A DNA stretch of 64,000 bases, from contig VBKG01000312.1 in assembly GCA_005879585.1 (NCBI GenBank), forward strand, positions 4,400 to 68,399, in the 5' to 3' direction. The notes under the pieces are model-generated. The model was not told where the DNA came from and searched no databases. It saw nothing but the letters and a program-made list of their open reading frames with translations. A program made the position numbers and the translations under genes. Of this stretch, positions 16,690 through 63,591 are shown one piece after another; position 1 is the first letter of the stretch; each line of letters opens with the position of its first letter. The stretch is from Deltaproteobacteria bacterium. GTDB taxonomy: Bacteria; Desulfobacterota; Binatia; DP-6.

Positions 16690-17110
16690 GTCGGGCGCGC
16701 GCCGGTTCCGCACACGCCGGCCTGGACCCTGGTGCGTGGCGACGACAGTGCAGCGCTCCTGCGTCGAGGCCAGCGCCTTGTGCACCTCGCGCGGCGTCGT
16801 GAGCACCCGGGCATGATATCTGTCGATCATGCCGATGGGCGGCGACGCGTGCGGCCGCGGCGCGCGCCTCGGTCGCGAGCTGGCTCGGGCTCGCCGCCCA
16901 TGCCGACGCGTTTCGGCTTTCGCGGGCGATCTTCGCTGCCCGGGATGTTCGCAACGTCGGCAAGCGGCTCCTCGTCGCCCGGCTTCGCCATGAACCGCGA
17001 GCATGCCATGGTCCTCGACGTGGCGCGGAAAGCCCTGCCCGTGCGGATCATCGATGAGCGTCCCGTGAGGCCGGCGGTGGGCAGATGGCCCAGGAGGTCG
17101 CGCGCGTTCG
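16690..17110 (-). pseudogene. Decayed partial copy of the IS200-like transposase
   Basis: Minus strand encodes ..EDHGMLAVHGEAG..PPIGMIDRYHARVLTTPREVHKALA, paralleling QDDHVHLIAEAEH..WDDRYHARALATPREVHNALA of the intact copy; about 85% DNA identity at 16770-16830 vs 17340-17400. Confidence 0.5.
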
Positions 17111-17129: not shown

Positions 17130-17801
17130 TCATCCCCTCTTTGGCCGCCCGTCCGCGACGATCAGCCCGTGTCGCTGCCAACCGATCCGGGCGAGCCAGG
17201 TATGCGCGACTGCGACAGGCCGCGGCCCGCTTTGGTCCGCCGACCGCGGCGGGCGCCAGCCGGCAAACCAGGGAGCTGAAGAGCATGGATCGATATCGGC
17301 TCCGGTGTGGCCGTGTCGCCGGAAGTTCAGCAGCACATAGGCGAGCGCGTTGTGCACCTCGCGGGGCGTCGCGAGCGCCCGGGCGTGATACCTGTCGTCC
17401 CAGACTCTTCCGCGCCGGCCGAGAGCGCGGTTTATCGCGTGGGCAAGGCGGATCGCCAGGCCGCGGACGCCGCTCGCGAGCGCCCGCGTGTGCTCGGCCT
17501 CGGCGATCAGATGGACGTGGTCGTCCTGGACTGAAAATTCGACGATCCGGAAGTCGGCGTGTGAGGAGACGGCGAGCGCGCGGCGGACGGATGGGAACAC
17601 CCGGTCGCACCGAAGGCAGCGGATGGCTGTGACCGCGCGCAGCGTCACGTGCACGGGATGGGTGGCGACATGCTGAGGCCGACCCCGATGCGGCACCCCA
17701 GGCCGGCGTCCGGGCGTCCGTTTCCGGCCGGCACCGGGGCGGCGCCCGCCCCACGTGCGGGCGAGGATCGCGAGAGTGAGTTGAGCGGGACGCCGGGCCA
17801 T
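17130..17801 (-). CDS. IS200/IS605-family Y1 (HuH) transposase, long form (COG1943 / RAYT-like)
   Basis: 223 aa; HuH motif DDHVHLIAEAEH and catalytic-Tyr region WDDRYHARAL; AT-rich promoter patch upstream. Confidence 0.8.
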   Translation of the reverse strand: MARRPAQLTLAILARTWGGRRPGAGRKRTPGRRPGVPHRGRPQHVATHPVHVTLRAVTAIRCLRCDRVFPSVRRALAVSSHADFRIVEFSVQDDHVHLIAEAEHTRALASGVRGLAIRLAHAINRALGRRGRVWDDRYHARALATPREVHNALAYVLLNFRRHGHTGADIDPCSSAPWFAGWRPPRSADQSGPRPVAVAHTWLARIGWQRHGLIVADGRPKRG

Positions 17802-40206: not shown

Positions 40207-40860
40207 ATGCGGACCCATCCGGTCTTCCTGCGCCTGGAGGGCAGGCGATGCGTGGTGATCGGCGCCGACGCCCCGGCGGCGGCGAAGGCCACGGCCTGCC
40301 TCCGTGCGGGTGCGAGCGTGACGGTGATCGCGCCCGAGCTGCCGACGGCGCTCGAAACGCACCCGGAGCTCCGACACGTCGCGCGGGAGTATCGTCGGGG
40401 CGATCTCGGTGGGGCCTTCCTCGCCTACGCGTCGACCCGCGATCCGGCGTTCATCGCCGAGCTCCGAGACGAGGCCGGGCGCGCCGGCGTGCTGCTCAAC
40501 GTCATCGACGTCCCGGCTGCGTCCACGTTCTTCTCGCCCGCCGTGCTCGAGCGCGGCGACCTCGCGATCGCGATCGGCACCGGGGGCGCGAGCCCGGCGC
40601 TCTCGGCGCGCATCCGGCGCGAGCTCGAGGCGCGGGTCGGACCGGAGTACGGACCGTACGTCGCGATCCTGGGCGCGGTTCGACGGGTGCTGGAGGGCGA
40701 GGCCGGACGCGCCGACGTCCTCGCCGCGCTCCTCGACGCTCCGCTCCTCGATCTCGTGCGCCGCGGTGCGCGCGAGGACATCGATCGGGTGCTCGCGCGC
40801 GTGGCCGGCGACGGGGTCACGCTCCAGCGCCTCGGCGTCGTGCTCGACGCGGAAGGGTAG
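40207..40860 (+). CDS. Precorrin-2 dehydrogenase / sirohydrochlorin ferrochelatase (SirC / CysG N-domain-like)
   Basis: Rossmann GxGxxA (VVIGADAPAAAKA); position upstream of hemA. Confidence 0.8.
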   Translation: MRTHPVFLRLEGRRCVVIGADAPAAAKATACLRAGASVTVIAPELPTALETHPELRHVAREYRRGDLGGAFLAYASTRDPAFIAELRDEAGRAGVLLNVIDVPAASTFFSPAVLERGDLAIAIGTGGASPALSARIRRELEARVGPEYGPYVAILGAVRRVLEGEAGRADVLAALLDAPLLDLVRRGAREDIDRVLARVAGDGVTLQRLGVVLDAEG

Positions 40861-40862
40861 GC

Positions 40863-41810
40863 ATGGAGCTCGGACTGCTGCGCCTCGCCACGCTCCTCTA
40901 CCTCGGGGCGACGTTCGACGCGCTCGCGGGCATCGCGATGCAGCGCGAGCTGCCACGCTGGCTGCTTCCCCGGCTGCTGCTCGGCGGACTCGCCGTGCAT
41001 GGCGCCGCCATCATCCTGCGGTCCGCGGCGGCAGGACACATCGCGGTCACGACCTTCGCCGAGGCCCTGTCGTTTCTGGCAGTGGTGCTGGTGGCGATCT
41101 TCCTGGCGGTCCAGGCCCGCCGGCCGCTCGTGGCCCTCGGGGCGGTGGTGAGCCCGCTCGCCTTCGGCCTCGTGCTCGCTGCCGACGCCGCGTACAGCGG
41201 CGCGCGGCCGCTGCCCCCGGTCCTGCACAGTGCCTGGCTCCCGGTGCACGTCGTGCTCGCGACCCTCGGCGACGCCGTCTTCGCGCTCGCCTTCAGCGTC
41301 GTGCTCGCTGCCGACGCCGCGTACAGCGGCGCGCGGCCGCTGCCCCCGGTCCTGCACAGTGCCTGGCTCCCGGTGCACGTCGTGCTCGCGACCCTCGGCG
41401 ACGCCGTCTTCGCGCTCGCCTTCAGCGCGAGCCTCCTCTACCTGATCCAGGAGCGGCGTCTGAAGACGCACCGGGGCCGCGGCGTCCTGCGCCATCTGCC
41501 GTCGCTGGAGACGCTCGACCGGGTGAACTACGCGTGCCTCGTCTGGGGTCTCGTGCTGCTGACGCTCGGCATCATGAGCGGCATCGTCTGGGCGCACGAG
41601 GCGTGGGGTCGATCCTGGTCCACCGACCCGAAGCTCGTGTTCTCGCTTCTCACCTGGGCCGTGTACGTCGTCCTCCTGCAGGGCCGGATGACGGCCGGGT
41701 GGCGTGGACGCTGGGCGGCGACGCTCACGATCGCGGGCTTCGCCGTGATCGTCCTGTCCCTCGTCAGCGTCAATGTGCTCGCCCTCGGCAATCACGGGAA
41801 GGCGTTCTAG
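40863..41810 (+). CDS. Cytochrome c assembly protein, CcsA/ResC/HemX-like (WWD domain)
   Basis: WWD motif IVWAHEAWGRSWSTDPK, multiple TM helices; carries an internal 129-bp perfect tandem duplication. Confidence 0.8.
   Translation: MELGLLRLATLLYLGATFDALAGIAMQRELPRWLLPRLLLGGLAVHGAAIILRSAAAGHIAVTTFAEALSFLAVVLVAIFLAVQARRPLVALGAVVSPLAFGLVLAADAAYSGARPLPPVLHSAWLPVHVVLATLGDAVFALAFSVVLAADAAYSGARPLPPVLHSAWLPVHVVLATLGDAVFALAFSASLLYLIQERRLKTHRGRGVLRHLPSLETLDRVNYACLVWGLVLLTLGIMSGIVWAHEAWGRSWSTDPKLVFSLLTWAVYVVLLQGRMTAGWRGRWAATLTIAGFAVIVLSLVSVNVLALGNHGKAF
41170..41427 (+). repeat. Perfect 2 x 129-bp in-frame tandem duplication inside the ccsA-like gene
   Basis: 41170-41298 is identical to 41299-41427; duplicates 43 aa VLAADAAYSGARPLPPVLHSAWLPVHVVLATLGDAVFALAFS. 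Confidence 0.9.
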
Positions 41811-41811
41811 C

Positions 41812-43107
41812 GTGGAGCAGCGGACGATCGTCCTGGTCGGCCTGAACCACCGGACGGCCCCGGTCGAGGTGCGGGAGCGGCTGGCGTTCGGCAACGGCCG
41901 CCTCGAGCCCGCGTTGCGCGAGCTGATCGCCGTGCCCGGCATCCTCGAAGGCGCGATCGTCTCGACGTGCAACCGGGTCGAGGTGATCGCGTGCGGGGCC
42001 GATGCGGCCGCTGTCGGGAGCGCGCTGCCGGCGTTCCTCGCCCGCGAGCACGGCGTCGCGGACCCCGCCCTGGCGACGCACCTCTACACGCACGCCGATC
42101 GCGAGGCGGTTCGTCACCTCTTCCGCGTCGCCGCCAGCCTCGATTCGATGGTCGTCGGCGAGTCGCAGGTCCTCGGGCAGCTGAAGGAGCAATACGGGGT
42201 GGCGGCGTCGGTCGGTGCGTCGGGTCGCGTGCTCCATCGCTGCTTTCACAAGTCGTTCTCGGTCGCCAAGCGCGTGCGGAGCGAGACCGGGATCGCAGAG
42301 AAAGCCGTCTCCGTCGGCTCGGCGGCCGTCGAGCTGGCGCGCGGCATCTTCGACCGCCTCGAGGACAAGACCGCGATGCTGATCGGCGCAGGCGCGATGG
42401 GCGAGCTCACGGCGCGCCAGCTCCTCGCGCACGGCGTCGGCTCGGTGATGGTGGTGAACCGCACCTACGAGCGCGCGATGGACGTGGCTCGTGAGCTCGG
42501 TGGGATGCCCGTGCCCTTCGACCGCCTGGCGCGCTACCTGCCGCTCGCGGACCTCGTGATCGGCACCGCGAGCGGCGAGGACTTCCTCCTGGCGCCGCCG
42601 CTCGTCGACGAGGCGATGCGCGAGCGGCGCCGGCGGCCGATGTTCTTCATCGACCTCGCGGTGCCCCGCGGCCTGGACCCCGGTATCAACGCGATCGACG
42701 ACGTCTACCTGTTCGACATCGACGACCTGGAAGGCGTCATCGCGGACAACAAGGGCGCGCGGGCCCGCGAGGCGGTCAAGGCCGAGACGATCATCGACGC
42801 CGAGGTCGACGCCTTCTGGCGCTGGTTCACGAGCCTCGACGTCGTGCCCACCATCGTCGCGCTGCGCGACAAGGTGGAGGGCATCCGCCGCCGCGAGCTG
42901 GCGCGCGCCCTCGCCGCCGTCGGTGACGCGGACCCGCGCATGGGCGAGGTGCTCGAGCGCGTCACGAGCGCGATCGTCAACAAGATCCTGCACGGTCCGC
43001 TGACCGCACTCCGGCGCCACGAGGCGCAGGCCGGCGAGGCCTTCTACGTCGATGCGGCCCGCCGCCTCTTCCGTCTCGGCGCCGATCCCGACGACGAGGA
43101 AGACTAG
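41812..43107 (+). CDS. hemA: Glutamyl-tRNA reductase
   Basis: CNR active-site motif STCNRVEV plus NADPH domain; GTG 41812 just after the ccsA-like TAG. Confidence 0.9.
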   Translation: MEQRTIVLVGLNHRTAPVEVRERLAFGNGRLEPALRELIAVPGILEGAIVSTCNRVEVIACGADAAAVGSALPAFLAREHGVADPALATHLYTHADREAVRHLFRVAASLDSMVVGESQVLGQLKEQYGVAASVGASGRVLHRCFHKSFSVAKRVRSETGIAEKAVSVGSAAVELARGIFDRLEDKTAMLIGAGAMGELTARQLLAHGVGSVMVVNRTYERAMDVARELGGMPVPFDRLARYLPLADLVIGTASGEDFLLAPPLVDEAMRERRRRPMFFIDLAVPRGLDPGINAIDDVYLFDIDDLEGVIADNKGARAREAVKAETIIDAEVDAFWRWFTSLDVVPTIVALRDKVEGIRRRELARALAAVGDADPRMGEVLERVTSAIVNKILHGPLTALRRHEAQAGEAFYVDAARRLFRLGADPDDEED

Positions 43108-44024
43108 TGGGAGCCGCTCCCAGCCGGCTGCGGCTCGGCACGCGCGCGAGCCCGCTGGCGCGGGTGCAGGCCGAGGGCGTCCGCGCCGCGCTCGCGGCGC
43201 GCCATCCGGGCCTCACGGTGGAGCTGGTCTTCGTCCGGACGACCGGCGACCGAGTGACGGGACCGCTCGCTGCGGCGGGCGGCAAGGGGCTCTTCGTGAA
43301 GGAGATCGAGGAAGCCCTGCTCGACGGCCGGATCGACGCGGGCGTGCACTCGATGAAGGACGTGCCGGCGCGGCTTGCCGCCGGGCTCGTGATCGGCGCG
43401 GTACCCGAGCGTGCTGACGCCCGCGACGTGCTCATCGGCGGCGACGGGGGGCTCGCCGGCCTGCCGCCCGGCGCGCGTATCGGGACGGCGAGCCCGCGGC
43501 GGCGGGCGCAGCTCCTCGCGCACCGCCCCGACCTCGTGGTGGTGCTCCTCCGCGGCAACGTCGACACTCGCCTGCGAAAATGGCGGGCCGGTGAGGTCGA
43601 TGCACTCCTGCTCGCCGCGGCGGGGCTCGCGCGGCTCGGGATCAGCGAGCCCGCAGCTCAGCCGCTCCCGGTCGACGAGTTCCTGCCCGCCGTCGGCCAG
43701 GGCGCGCTCGCGCTCGAATGCCGCGCCGACGACGGTGCGACGCGGGCGCTTCTCGCCGCCGTCGACCAGCCGGCGGCCGCAACCGCGGTCGCGGCCGAGC
43801 GGGCATTCCTCGCCGCGGTCGGCGGCGACTGCAACAGCGCCATCGCGGCACACGCGACGCTCGCCGGCGGCCGGCTGACGCTGCGCGCGCTGGTCACCGA
43901 TCCCGACGGCCGCCGCCGTCTCGAGGAGCGCGACACGGCCCCCGCCGCCGACGCGGAGGCCCTCGGCCGCACCGTGGCGACCCGCCTCCTCGCCGCCGGC
44001 GCCGCGGCACTGATGGGTCGATGA
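43107..44024 (+). CDS. hemC: Hydroxymethylbilane synthase (porphobilinogen deaminase)
   Basis: LRLGTRASPLARVQAE N-terminus and cofactor Cys region; TAGTG overlap with hemA. Confidence 0.9.
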   Translation: MGAAPSRLRLGTRASPLARVQAEGVRAALAARHPGLTVELVFVRTTGDRVTGPLAAAGGKGLFVKEIEEALLDGRIDAGVHSMKDVPARLAAGLVIGAVPERADARDVLIGGDGGLAGLPPGARIGTASPRRRAQLLAHRPDLVVVLLRGNVDTRLRKWRAGEVDALLLAAAGLARLGISEPAAQPLPVDEFLPAVGQGALALECRADDGATRALLAAVDQPAAATAVAAERAFLAAVGGDCNSAIAAHATLAGGRLTLRALVTDPDGRRRLEERDTAPAADAEALGRTVATRLLAAGAAALMGR

Positions 44025-45574
44025 GCGGGCGCGTCTATTTGGTGGGTGCGGGGCCGGGCGATCCGGGTCTCCTGACCCTTCGCGGCCAGCGCTGCCTCGC
44101 CGCCGCCGACGTCGTCGTGCACGACGACCTCGTGAGCCGCCGGCTGCTCGAGCATACGCGACCGGCCGCCGAGATCGTCGCCGTGGGCGGCGCGCACGGC
44201 GATCCGGCGCGTCTCGGCCAGGACGCGATCGAAGCGCTGCTCGTGGCCCGCGCGCGGGCGGGCAAGACCGTGGTGCGGCTCAAGAACGGCGATCCGTTCC
44301 TCTTCGGCCGGGGTGCGGAGGAGGCCGAGGCGCTCCGTCGCGCGGGGATCCCGTTCGAAGTCGTCCCAGGCGTGACTGCCGCCCTCGCCGTCCCGGCGTA
44401 CGCCGGCATCCCGGCGACGCATCGCGATCACGCCTCGCTCGTGACGATCGCCACCGGCCATCAGGCGCGGTCCGCGTCGGGCGCGGAGCCGACGGTGCCG
44501 GCGCTTCCGTGGGCCGCGCTCGCGCGCCAGGGCGGCACGCTCGTCTTCCTGATGGGCATGCGCCAGCTGCCGGGGATCATGGCAGCGCTCATGGAGCACG
44601 GGCTCGGCGGCGACACGCCTGCCGCAGCCGTGGCGCACGGCACGACGGGCGGCCAGCGGACCGTCGTCGCCACCGTGGCGACGCTCGCCGAGCGCGTGCA
44701 CGCCGCCGGCGTCGGCCCGCCCGCCGTCGTCGTGGTCGGCAGCGTCGTGAATGTCCGGGAGCGGATCCGCTGGCTCGAGGATCGGCCGTTGTTCGGCCGC
44801 CGCGTCGTCCTGACGCGCCCGCGCGCGCAGGCGGGCGAGCTCGCACGGCTCCTCGAGGACGCCGGCGCGGAGGTCGTCCTCTTTCCCACGATCGCGATCG
44901 GCCCGCCGCCGGACGCGGCGGCCCTCGACCGTGCCGTGGCGCACGCGGCGGAGTACGACTGGATCGTGTTCACCAGCGTCAACGGCGTACGCGTCTTCTT
45001 CGAGCGCTTCACCGCGCAGAGACGCGACGTCCGGGCGTTCGCCGGGGTGCGGCTCGCGGCGATCGGCCCCGAGACCGCGGCGGAGCTCGCGCGCCGTCAC
45101 CTGCACCCCGACGTCGTGCCGGCGGAGTACCGGGCCGAGGGCTTGATCGCGGCGCTCGGCGGCGAGGACGTGCGCGGCCGGCGCTTCCTCCTGCCGCGCG
45201 CGGCCGGCGCCCGCGCCATCCTTCCCGAAGCGCTCGCCGCGCGCGGCGCGGTCGTCGACGAGGTCGTCGCCTACGAGGCCGTCCTGCCGCCCGACGCCGA
45301 CGTCAGCGGCCTGCGGGCGGCGCTCGGCGAAGGATCGATCGATGCGGTCGCGTTCACGAGCAGCTCGACGGTGCGGAACTTCGTGACGCTCGTCAGCGAG
45401 GACGACGTCGGCCGCCTGATCCGCGACGGCCGGCCCGCCATCGCGTGCATCGGCCCGGTGACGGCCGAGACGGCGCGGGCGGCCGGCCTCGCCGTCGCCG
45501 TCGAGCCGCAGGCGTACACCGCGGCCGCGCTGGCCGCGGCGCTGACGGAGCATCTCCGCACGCAGCGCCGGTGA
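44021..45574 (+). CDS. Uroporphyrinogen-III C-methyltransferase / uroporphyrinogen-III synthase fusion (CobA-HemD)
   Basis: N-terminal [15 protein letters not shown] methylase plus C-terminal HemD domain; ATGA overlap with hemC. Confidence 0.9.
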
Positions 45575-45625: not shown

Positions 45626-45671
45626 CGTGAGCGCGAGCGAAGGATATTCATGAGCGCGAGCGAAGGATATT
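45626..45671 (+). repeat. 2 x 23-bp tandem duplication of the hemB translation-initiation region
   Basis: GTGAGCGCGAGCGAAGGATATTC / ATGAGCGCGAGCGAAGGATATTG then ATGAGCCGC of hemB; creates two 7-8-codon mini-ORFs whose TGA stops nest into the next start. Confidence 0.8.
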
Positions 45672-46650
45672 GATGAGCCGCTTCCCCGCCTATCGCCCGC
45701 GGCGGCTCCGCCGCAGCGAGGCGCTCCGCCGTCTCGTTCGCGAGACCCGCGTCGTCACGGAGCAGCTCGTCCAGCCGCTCTTCGTCGTACCGGGCGACGG
45801 CGTCGAGCGAGCGGTCGAGTCGATGCCGGGCGTGGCGCAGCGCTCGGTCGACCGCACGGCCGAGGAATGCCGGCGGCTGGCCGACGTCGGCGTCCCGGCG
45901 GTGCTGCTCTTCGGCATCCCGGAGGAGAAGGACGCGCGGGGCCGCGGCGCGACCGACCCGGGCGGCATCATCCCGCGCGCGCTCCACGCGGTCCGCCGGG
46001 CCACCCCGGGCCTGGTCCTCATCACCGACGTCTGTCTCTGCGAGTACACCGATCACGGCCACTGCGGGGTCGTCCGCGAGGGCGACGTCGACAACGACGC
46101 CACACTCGAGCTGCTCGCGGCCGAGGCGCTGGCGCACGCGCGGGCCGGCGCCGATGTCATCGCGCCGTCGGACATGATGGACGGCCGCGTCGGTGCCATC
46201 CGTGGCGCGCTCGACGCCGCCGGCTTCTCGCATCTTCCCATCATGTCGTACGCCGCGAAGTTCGCGTCCGCGCTGTACGGCCCGTTTCGCGATGCTGCCG
46301 AGTCGACACCGGCCTTCGGCGACCGCCGCTCCTACCAGATGGACCCGGCCAACGCGGAGGAAGCACTGCGGGAAGTCGCGCTCGACGTCGAGGAGGGCGC
46401 CGACGTCGTGATGGTGAAGCCTGCGCTCCCGTATCTCGACGTCGTCCGCCGCGTGAAGGAGCGGTTCGGGTATCCCGTCGCGGCCTACCAGGTGAGCGGT
46501 GAGTACGCGATGGTGAAGGCCGCTGCCGCGCGCGGCTGGCTCGACGAGGCGCGCGTCGTCGACGAGAGTCTGCTGGCGATCAAGCGCGCCGGCGCCGACG
46601 TCATCATCACGTACTTCGCGAAGGACGTCGCCGCCCGGAGGCGGGCGTGA
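45670..46650 (+). CDS. hemB: Porphobilinogen synthase (delta-aminolevulinate dehydratase)
   Basis: Conserved ALAD active site ([12 protein letters not shown] zinc-type Cys cluster). Confidence 0.9.
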
Positions 46651-60017: not shown

Positions 60018-60930
60018 CAGCGACCTCCGACCGGCGACGGAGCTCCACTCCGTGACCCTGCACGGCCATCGGGTGGGGCTCCGTCTCGCCGGTCACGGGC
60101 CCGTCCTGCTGCTCGTTCACGGGATGGCGAGCAACTCGGAGGCATGGACGCGGGTCAGCTCGCTGCTCGCCGGCGGGTTCGCGATCGTCGCGCCGGACCT
60201 CCTCGGCCACGGGCAGACGGCGCAGCCGGCGGGTGACTATTCGCTGGGCGCGCACGCGACGCTCCTCCGGGATGTTCTCGTCGTCCTCGGGCACGAGCGC
60301 GCCACGGTCGTCGGACACTCGTTCGGCGGCGGCGTGGCCATGCAGTTCGCCTACCAGTTCCCGGAGCTCTGCGAGCGCCTCGTGCTGGTTGGGAGCGGCG
60401 GTCTCGGGCGGGAGGTGAACCTGCTGCTGCGGGCCCTCGCCCTTCCCGGCGCGGAGCACGTGCTCCGGCTCTTCTGTCGCGCGTCGGTGACCGAGGCGGG
60501 CCGCACCGTCGTCGAGTGGGCTCGGCGTGTCGGCTTCGGCCCGACTCCCGCCGCCGAGGAGATCGGCCGCGGCTACAACGCGCTGACCGATCCGTACGGC
60601 CGGACGGCTTTTTTTCGGACGCTCCGTGCCGTGATCGGCGTCGGCGGCCAGAGCATCAGCGCCAACGACCGGTTGCCGCTCGCCGCCGATCTCCCCACCC
60701 TCATCATCTGGGGCGCTCGCGACCCGATCATCCCGGTGCAGCATGCGCAGCGAGCGCATGACGCGATCGCGGGCAGCCGCCTCGAGATCTTCGACGGGGT
60801 CGGCCACTTCCCGCAGTGCGAGGCCCCGGAACGGTTCGCGCGGACGGTCTCGGACTTCGTCGTTTCGACGGAGCCGGCACGTCTGTCGCAGGAGCGCCTC
60901 CGCATGCGCCTGCAGGCCGGCGGACTGTAA
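60007..60930 (+). CDS. Alpha/beta-fold hydrolase
   Basis: Nucleophile elbow GHSFGG, LLLVHGMASNSEAW, C-terminal His region. Confidence 0.85.
   Translation: MLASSDLRPATELHSVTLHGHRVGLRLAGHGPVLLLVHGMASNSEAWTRVSSLLAGGFAIVAPDLLGHGQTAQPAGDYSLGAHATLLRDVLVVLGHERATVVGHSFGGGVAMQFAYQFPELCERLVLVGSGGLGREVNLLLRALALPGAEHVLRLFCRASVTEAGRTVVEWARRVGFGPTPAAEEIGRGYNALTDPYGRTAFFRTLRAVIGVGGQSISANDRLPLAADLPTLIIWGARDPIIPVQHAQRAHDAIAGSRLEIFDGVGHFPQCEAPERFARTVSDFVVSTEPARLSQERLRMRLQAGGL

Positions 60931-62205: not shown

Positions 62206-63591
<1,386 letters not shown>

Follow-up and report, generated by a model that had tools for sequence, protein, structure and literature searches.

Does the perfect repeat inside the hemX-like gene of this Deltaproteobacteria contig record a mutation that took place in a cell, or was it produced when a scaffold was assembled, and what would it do to the encoded protein? 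We addressed these questions in the whole stretch of DNA that was analysed, 64,000 nucleotides long and called the window below. The gene lies at 40863-41810 on the forward strand, starts with ATG and stops with TAG, and encodes a PF01578 protein of 315 residues with the duplication and 272 without it. The first-pass annotation had described a perfect, in-frame 129-bp tandem duplication at 41170-41427, and self-comparison of the DNA, TRF and the open reading frame all return exactly these coordinates. Copy 1 (41170-41298, forward strand) and copy 2 (41299-41427, forward strand) agree at 129/129 positions, and the exact self-match cannot be extended by one base on either side. In the 64-kb window TRF detects just one long tandem repeat, the array at 41155-41427 (period 129, 2.1 copies, 98% matches), and no further long perfect direct repeats, including any other of a k-1 size, were found in the 64 kb. 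Chance identity over 129 bases is negligible, given a match probability of ~0.31 per base in a window of 71.5% GC. Since 129 bp make 43 codons, the segment VVLAADAAYSGARPLPPVLHSAWLPVHVVLATLGDAVFALAFS is encoded twice, in frame. Copy 1 corresponds to residues 103/104-145, comprising the end of TM4, a periplasmic loop and the start and body of TM5. Within it lies the CAC codon (41247-41249, forward strand) of an invariant histidine, residue 129 of the single-copy protein in the motif LPVH, which recurs in copy 2 at 41376-41378. The novel junction, AGCG/TCGTG, falls at 41298/41299, in the wider sequence CTTCAGCG/TCGTGCTC (slashes mark the join).

The 315-aa protein is identical to NCBI TMB52539.1 ('MAG: hypothetical protein E6J56_16020 [Deltaproteobacteria bacterium]'), which is encoded on a 74,139-bp contig, and its host is an uncultured Candidatus Binatia soil MAG, probably of BioProject PRJNA449266. 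Neither the 315-aa protein nor the neighbouring SirC has an exact match in the gene-position index. Upstream of the gene we find a sirC-like precorrin-2 dehydrogenase / siroheme synthase N-terminal domain (40207-40860, forward strand; PF13241, PF14824, TIGR01470). Downstream come hemA, encoding glutamyl-tRNA reductase (41812-43107, forward strand; TIGR01035 at 1.4e-129, GTG start), hemC, encoding porphobilinogen deaminase (43107-44024, forward strand; PF01379, PF03900), a cobA/hemD fusion for uroporphyrinogen-III methyltransferase and synthase (44021-45574, forward strand; PF00590, PF02602) and hemB, from 45673. The gene order in the window is therefore sirC-hemX-hemA-hemC-cobA/hemD-hemB, and the neighbours of hemX on the two sides are haem-synthesis and SLT/LysM genes. 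The GTG start of hemA is one base past the hemX stop codon (41808-41810), and the adjacency of hemX and hemA is kept in 28/28 related genome loci, mostly from Candidatus Binatia MAGs, with more distant ones from Desulfuromonadales and Syntrophorhabdales.

PF01578 (Cytochrom_C_asm) matches the window allele with E = 2.1e-43, in two separate stretches, and the single-copy allele P0121 with E = 2.3e-41, in one. Against TIGR03144, which has a cut-off of 187.6 bits, the single-copy allele scores 174.0 and stays below, while the duplicated allele reaches 190.7 and passes, because the repeated segment is scored twice, in two stretches. In an alignment to Helicobacter hepaticus CcsBA (7S9Y), the histidine of LPVH falls on His761, that of GNHGK on His897, and WGRSWSTDPK on WGRYWGWDSK; across 63 homologues both of these histidines, H129 and H268, are invariant. 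At the position of His858 the window protein has a glutamine, which is likewise invariant (Q230) in the 63 homologues. We take His761, His897 and His858 of CcsBA to be P-His1 (a periplasmic haem ligand), P-His2 and TM-His2, respectively. The suggestion that the duplicated segment bears a conserved histidine of the haem-handling type thus holds, as the LPVH histidine is family-invariant and aligns with His761. The gene had also been called ccsA/hemX-like and assigned to cytochrome c assembly. The first part stands, in that the product is a CcsA/HemX-like PF01578 protein; the second needs correcting, and the gene is HemX-type and not a demonstrated cytochrome c synthase, because it sits in a conserved hem operon, has an invariant glutamine at the His858 position and scores below the TIGR03144 cut-off as a single copy. 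We class it as an unexceptional member of the HemX family, located in a hem operon of Binatia.

Orthologues had been expected to carry a single copy, and this was borne out by homologues, alignment and conspecific contigs alike. The duplication occurs in 0/120 of the best 120 homologues, whose lengths run from 220 to 301 aa and are mostly 272 (that is, 315-43), and in a 64-sequence alignment the 43-residue insertion is private to the window protein. Removal of one copy makes the protein exactly equal to P0121, the commonest conspecific allele (76 collection blocks). At the DNA level, the duplication is absent from 13/13 conspecific contigs (L001-L003 and L035-L044; ~98-99.7% DNA identity), which comprise IDBA-UD-style scaffolds of several BioSamples and k141 assemblies; eleven of them have an uninterrupted 272-aa gene, and L003 has a 27-bp deletion. 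In three more sibling contigs (L032-L034) the locus is interrupted by a gap or cut short. The 33-base junction has 0 matches in JGI metagenome contigs, so the duplication is private to one scaffold. Its 20-base core gave 20 JGI matches, all of them attributable to chance and located in unrelated AFSVVLA-coding genes. A search of 5.8 billion proteins with the 61-aa junction peptide returned two candidates and no match, and is uninformative, since it missed known homologues too. Since all other copies of the gene were seen without the duplication, it is either a very recent slippage mutation, which would probably cripple the protein, or a scaffold-joining error. The first-pass annotation had rightly posed the same choice, and the evidence pulls both ways. 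Two clues are the main ones as to origin: a homeologous direct repeat at the boundary of the unit, and the coincidence of its length with k-1 of an assembler. The first-pass annotation mentions neither.

The first clue is found directly upstream of copy 1, where a tract that we call R1 (41126-41169, forward strand) matches the last 44 bp of the unit at 31/44 positions. This 70% identity compares with 0.34 +/- 0.076 for in-frame 44-mers, and 0/15,960 background comparisons in this gene reach 0.70; on the downstream side there is no similarity (27-32%). The match is closest at its end. There, 41155-41169 (CGCTCGCCTTCGGCC) agrees at 13/15 positions with R2, the last 15 bp of the unit (CGCTCGCCTTCAGCG; 41284-41298, forward strand), which forms the left side of the junction and recurs at 41413-41427. 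Matches of at least 13/15 occur at ~6.5e-5 of positions for in-frame offsets. Within these 15 bp lies an 11-bp exact repeat, CGCTCGCCTTC, at 41155 and 41284, whose spacing of 129 equals the period of the duplication; no short direct repeat in hemX is longer, and only three of at least 10 bp are spaced by up to 300 bp. A pre-existing direct repeat with a spacing of 129, ending at the unit boundary, is what slipped-strand mutation calls for. Such boundary homeology is what slippage, or an unequal exchange of the TM4-coding with the TM5-coding tract, typically leaves behind, and a blunt concatenation of contigs has no reason to coincide with a homeologous tract.

The following steps could produce the observed array. 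The 3' end of a nascent strand, after copying the TM5-coding tract that ends in CGCTCGCCTTCAGCG, would mispair with the TM4-coding tract CGCTCGCCTTCGGCC, which lies exactly 129 bp upstream, and the stretch between them would be copied once more; the product would be identical if these tracts had undergone unequal exchange. We consider that the best explanation, to which we would give an even chance, is a genuine and very recent tandem duplication allele in the Binatia population behind one scaffold. Since the junction AGCG/TCGTG is absent from single-copy sequence, a de Bruijn path through it would presumably need reads that bear the junction. Further, the 64-kb window contains no N, and the MAG set from which it most likely comes passed a step of scaffold-error correction (PMC6784897). 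It also speaks for a real allele that the unit is in frame and that the hemX stop lies beside the hemA start.

Several observations count against a real allele. It is known from one scaffold only and is absent from the 13 conspecific contigs and from P0121. Its junction shows zero microhomology: the switch comes after a terminal mismatch (AGCG vs GGCC), outside the identity block in which slipped-strand events would place it, and at the junction the sequence throughout is that of the downstream copy (AGCG). With simple slippage and proofreading, AGCC or GGCC would be more natural at the junction copy, and the extension of AGCG on GGCC past a terminal mismatch is not the commonest outcome of slippage. 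We also considered slippage on the bottom strand and exact-overlap mis-merging at the 11-bp core, and rejected both, as each predicts a GGCC-type junction, which is not seen. Finally, the allele is likely deleterious, with invariant residues doubled and a model of lower confidence, and should therefore rarely become the consensus of a population.

The second clue favours the assembler. The length of the unit, 129, is 130-1, and k = 130 belongs to the series used in the probable source study, an analysis of Angelo meadow soil in which 250-bp reads were cut to 200 and assembled by IDBA-UD with mink 30, maxk 200 and step 10, the scaffolding errors of the bins being corrected following an earlier study (PMC6784897). 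Contigs that IDBA_UD breaks at branch points have common k-1 ends (COBRA paper, PMC10914622), and Chen et al. (2020) described IDBA-UD scaffolds that retain both overlapping flanks as 'duplicate sequence', with Ns between them (PMC7111523); that paper and the Angelo meadow-soil study come from one laboratory. Two IDBA-UD contigs overlapping by 129 bp (k-1, k = 130) may therefore have been joined end to end, or joined by Ns that were later removed, with the overlap left uncollapsed, and we hold this to be a serious contender, if short of an even chance. It accords with a blunt junction that has no common base, with the perfect identity of the copies, with the exact recovery of the commonest allele on removal of one copy, with a junction that was seen nowhere else and with the structural implausibility of the product. 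Sibling scaffolds with a like naming scheme, L032 and L033, also have N runs or a chimeric join within the same 250-bp region.

Such a join, however, leaves unexplained why the boundary matches a 44-bp, 70% homeologous tract that ends 13/15, for which chance gives p ~1e-4 to 1e-3. Moreover, k = 130 is not the maximum k, which is 200 and from which a final overlap of maxK-1 = 199 is expected, and a length ending in 9 arises by chance in ~10% of cases. No Ns stand at the junction or anywhere else in the window, contrary to the joins described by Chen et al., though automatic correction could have removed them. A branch in the k = 130 graph would need a strain SNP at 41169 or directly after the unit, and the 13 conspecific sequences show no known SNP at either position. 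There is no second k-1 duplication within the 64 kb, and the assignment of the window to the Angelo study is itself inferred from the style of its NCBI name and accession and from the conspecific scaffolds. We also asked whether base composition could have been a sufficient cause of assembly trouble, and rejected it, since the GC content of the region (77-78%, vs 71.5 +/- 5%) is not extreme.

The locus shows other structural anomalies. L003, which comes from BioSample SAMN08902838 and encodes protein P0006 (263 aa), carries a 27-bp in-frame deletion in the same helix, flanked by CGTC, which removes VLATLGDAV with its invariant G-D-A. In L033, Ns replace 41138-41249, and the contig to their right begins at 41250; L032 contains Ns and a foreign segment and resumes at 41193; L034, a JGI contig, starts at 41252; and P0142, a read-assembled protein, is chimeric past 41258. 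The starts or breaks of L033, L034 and P0142 thus coincide with the left breakpoint of the L003 deletion, 41249-41258. These breaks fit a wild-type/deletion polymorphism that segregates in the population and disrupts graph assemblers, and they suggest a modest rise in the plausibility of real in-frame alleles at this site. One could go further and regard the TM4-TM5 segment as a hotspot of repeat-mediated in-frame alleles that are tolerated or favoured because glutamyl-tRNA reductase is then freed from its HemX brake. We think this rather unlikely; if it were true, tetrapyrrole flux would be naturally tuned by in-frame loss-of-function alleles that keep translation into the abutting hemA.

Contig breaks also bear on a rival reading, in which the duplication is a minor allele (or an in vitro template-switch chimera) that was present in the sample at low frequency beside the single-copy allele and was assembled as the assembler took the longer path. 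It would reconcile the slippage signature with the rarity of the allele, and polymorphism-linked contig breaks do occur here, with L032 resuming 4 bp past a SNP at 41189 and L033 and L034 starting at the breakpoint of the 27-bp deletion. Assemblers, on the other hand, usually take the branch of higher coverage or break the contig, and an in vitro chimera is expected as a singleton, and we judge this rival improbable. If it were nevertheless true, the scaffold would misrepresent the dominant population.

How do the two main clues weigh against each other? The k-1 coincidence has a chance of ~10% if the event is real, and the repeat coincidence one of ~1e-4 to 1e-3 if the array is a blunt-join artefact. 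Against this stands the prior, since in short-read soil MAGs artefacts are much likelier than fresh duplications in conserved genes. Taking these together, we leave a real and dominant allele at an even chance, see a considerable chance of a joining error, and reserve a small one for a real allele that is minor; the call is close to even.

If the allele is real, what would it do to HemX? The AlphaFold model of the single-copy protein (pLDDT 81.8, pTM 0.83) has eight long helices and superposes on the CcsA part of CcsBA (7S9Y) with a TM-score of 0.80. Its loop charges fit an N-out/C-out topology, in which the model places the histidine-bearing loop, the WWD-like loop and the C-terminal histidine all outside. 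The duplicated allele is modelled with less confidence (pLDDT 71.6, pTM 0.71): copy 2 takes the place of the canonical TM5, and residues 115-157 are left unplaced, with pLDDT <50 save at two single positions. The window allele has nine hydrophobic segments, in keeping with the earlier proposal that the duplication adds a TM helix; the added 19-mer, in which the start of TM5 is combined with the end of TM4, has a Kyte-Doolittle value of 2.29, vs 1.91 for the native helix.

It had further been proposed that the extra helix would flip the topology of the downstream WWD domain. This may happen under strict alternation, which inverts everything downstream, but it is only one of the outcomes to be considered, as the loop after TM5 has 7 Lys/Arg and copy 2 is canonical in the AlphaFold model. 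The TM7-TM8 loop has several Arg as well, and inversion would place these Arg-rich loops outside, contrary to the positive-inside rule. A frustrated topology, in which the extra segment stays on the periplasmic side, seems at least as likely as a flip. The protein would gain a ninth hydrophobic helix of chimeric origin and a further periplasmic loop, and both the invariant histidine and the GDA motif would occur twice; the arginine-rich loops downstream should keep the C-terminal half oriented as normal, and the extra helix, as a result, would be unable to span the membrane properly. On these models, a misfolded or impaired HemX is the likely consequence if the duplication is real.

The reading frame matters for the genes that follow. 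Since the spacing of the repeat is a multiple of three, the product would stay in frame, and translation would reach the hemX stop, a single base short of hemA. Even with a damaged HemX, the downstream genes hemA-hemC-hemD, which are essential, would thereby escape polarity. In Firmicutes, loss of HemX leads to more glutamyl-tRNA reductase (PMC5801465), and by analogy the duplication could raise HemA levels and tetrapyrrole flux. One might instead read the duplication as an adaptive, functional HemX of 9 or 10 helices whose architecture is kept by selection; the sole points in its favour are that the duplication is in frame and that the open reading frame and the downstream genes are intact. 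The two copies, however, have not diverged at all, the architecture is missing from the 120 best homologues and from 28 loci of related lineages, the rest of the protein is identical to P0121 with no compensating change, and model confidence is low for the insertion. We therefore rejected a new adaptive architecture, which we regard as extremely improbable.

A real duplication would show a polytopic haem-handling protein that has naturally received an odd number of extra helices, and an uncultured soil lineage in which HemX has probably lost its function in one allele; it would be of modest use for studying topology frustration and the control of haem synthesis by HemX beyond Firmicutes. If it is an artefact, database protein TMB52539.1 carries a false insertion of 43 residues, and this insertion lifts it over an NCBIfam equivalog threshold below which the true protein stays. 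Fresh repeat-mediated mutations and scaffold-join errors are both known phenomena, and in either case no new biological question is raised.

Lastly, we compared the locus with known systems. As an array, it resembles the short-repeat-mediated duplications of bacteria (slipped-strand, RecA-independent) in that its copies lie head to tail, without a spacer, and its period is the distance between the two halves of a short, imperfect direct repeat that was there before; the 27-bp deletion of the conspecific L003, with its flanking CGTC, is of a similar kind. The array differs from them in that the switch point lies just past a terminal mismatch and not within an identity block. With the duplications made by IDBA-UD scaffold joins it shares perfect identity, a blunt junction, a length that would be k-1 for one k of the probable source study and gapped sibling scaffolds, and it departs from these in having no Ns between the copies, a k of 130 that is not maxK and a boundary at a homeologous repeat. 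As a protein, the product has a fold in common with CcsA/CcsBA of H. hepaticus (7S9Y/7S9Z; Foldseek gives a TM-score of 0.80 over 271 columns and phmmer an E of 4e-12), as well as a W-rich, WWD-like loop (WAHEAWGRSWSTDPK) and both periplasmic histidine positions (761, 897). Unlike CcsBA, it has no fused CcsB part and bears a glutamine at the TM-His2 position (His858); unlike System II CcsA, its single-copy form scores under the TIGR03144 cut-off and its gene is surrounded by genes for haem synthesis and not for cytochrome c maturation. The protein also parallels HemX, which Choby et al. (2018) described as a PF01578 protein with eight predicted helices and both N- and C-termini outside, encoded with gtrR/hemA, and for which homologues in Desulfovibrio, Geobacter, Aquifex and Chlorobium have the same gene context (PMC5801465). 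The window gene differs from hemX of Firmicutes in lying upstream of hemA, whereas there it lies downstream, in belonging to an uncultured Candidatus Binatia host and in the ninth hydrophobic segment of its allele. What it shares with the Firmicutes genes (B. subtilis hemAXCDBL, S. aureus) is a product that, in the single-copy allele, is a membrane protein of ~270 aa with PF01578 and eight predicted helices, and a place next to hemA/gtrR amid uroporphyrinogen and siroheme genes.

When scored against the NCBIfam model TIGR03144 (the 'CcsB' equivalog, cut-off 187.6), the duplicated hemX allele (window 40863-41807) reaches 190.7 and lies above the cut-off because the repeat is scored twice, and the single-copy HemX protein, at 174.0, lies below it. 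The HemX of the window is thus an example of a family assignment inflated by an insertion.

The hemX gene of L003, a conspecific scaffold at 99% DNA identity, carries an in-frame deletion of 27 bp (locus L003:1387-2178; equivalent to window 41249-41275), which is flanked on both sides by the 4-bp repeat CGTC. Its product, protein P0006 (263 aa), has lost the residues VLATLGDAV, among them the family-invariant G-D-A, from the same helix as the window's duplicated segment. In addition, a gap, a break or a chimeric turn falls within window 41035-41258 in four independent assemblies, comprising IDBA-UD-style scaffolds, a JGI contig and a read-level protein assembly (sibling contigs L033:2898-2998, L032:2763-2950 and L034:1, and the read-assembled protein P0142). 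In L032 a foreign segment of ~180 bp is followed by an N run. The break point, at 41250-41258 in three of the four, coincides with the left breakpoint of the L003 deletion.

Elsewhere in the hemX cluster, a 23-bp tandem repeat (TGAGCGCGAGCGAAGGATATTCA, x2.2, 96%; window 45628-45678) lies immediately 5' of hemB. The repeat doubles the ATG along with the ribosome-binding region GAAGGA, generating a mini-ORF of seven codons (MSASEGY) whose TGA overlaps the hemB ATG. Conspecific contig L001 shares this repeat, with 2 SNPs, and the comparison indicates that it is fixed in the species and is not an assembly quirk.

Two further direct repeats were observed in the window. The copies of the first, 130 nt long and 89% identical, are 2 kb apart (60237-60366 and 62273-62402), the second copy being within the 3' part of the myo-inositol-1-phosphate synthase gene (62206-63591, minus strand). 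Since the longest ORF in the region of the first copy has no Pfam match, this region could represent either a paralogue or a fragment of a gene. The other, of 59 nt, has copies 88% identical and 572 bp apart (16767-16825 and 17339-17397).

Finally, HemX residue Q230 (wild-type numbering; codon at window 41634-41636 in the duplicated allele) is an invariant Gln in the Binatia HemX clade, aligned to His858, which we take to be TM-His2, of the System II cytochrome c synthase CcsBA. Both periplasmic His positions are invariant in the clade, as is H202, the His of WAH. Judging from this alignment, the invariant Gln together with the conserved His set may mark out proteins of the HemX type as binding or sensing haem and not exporting it.
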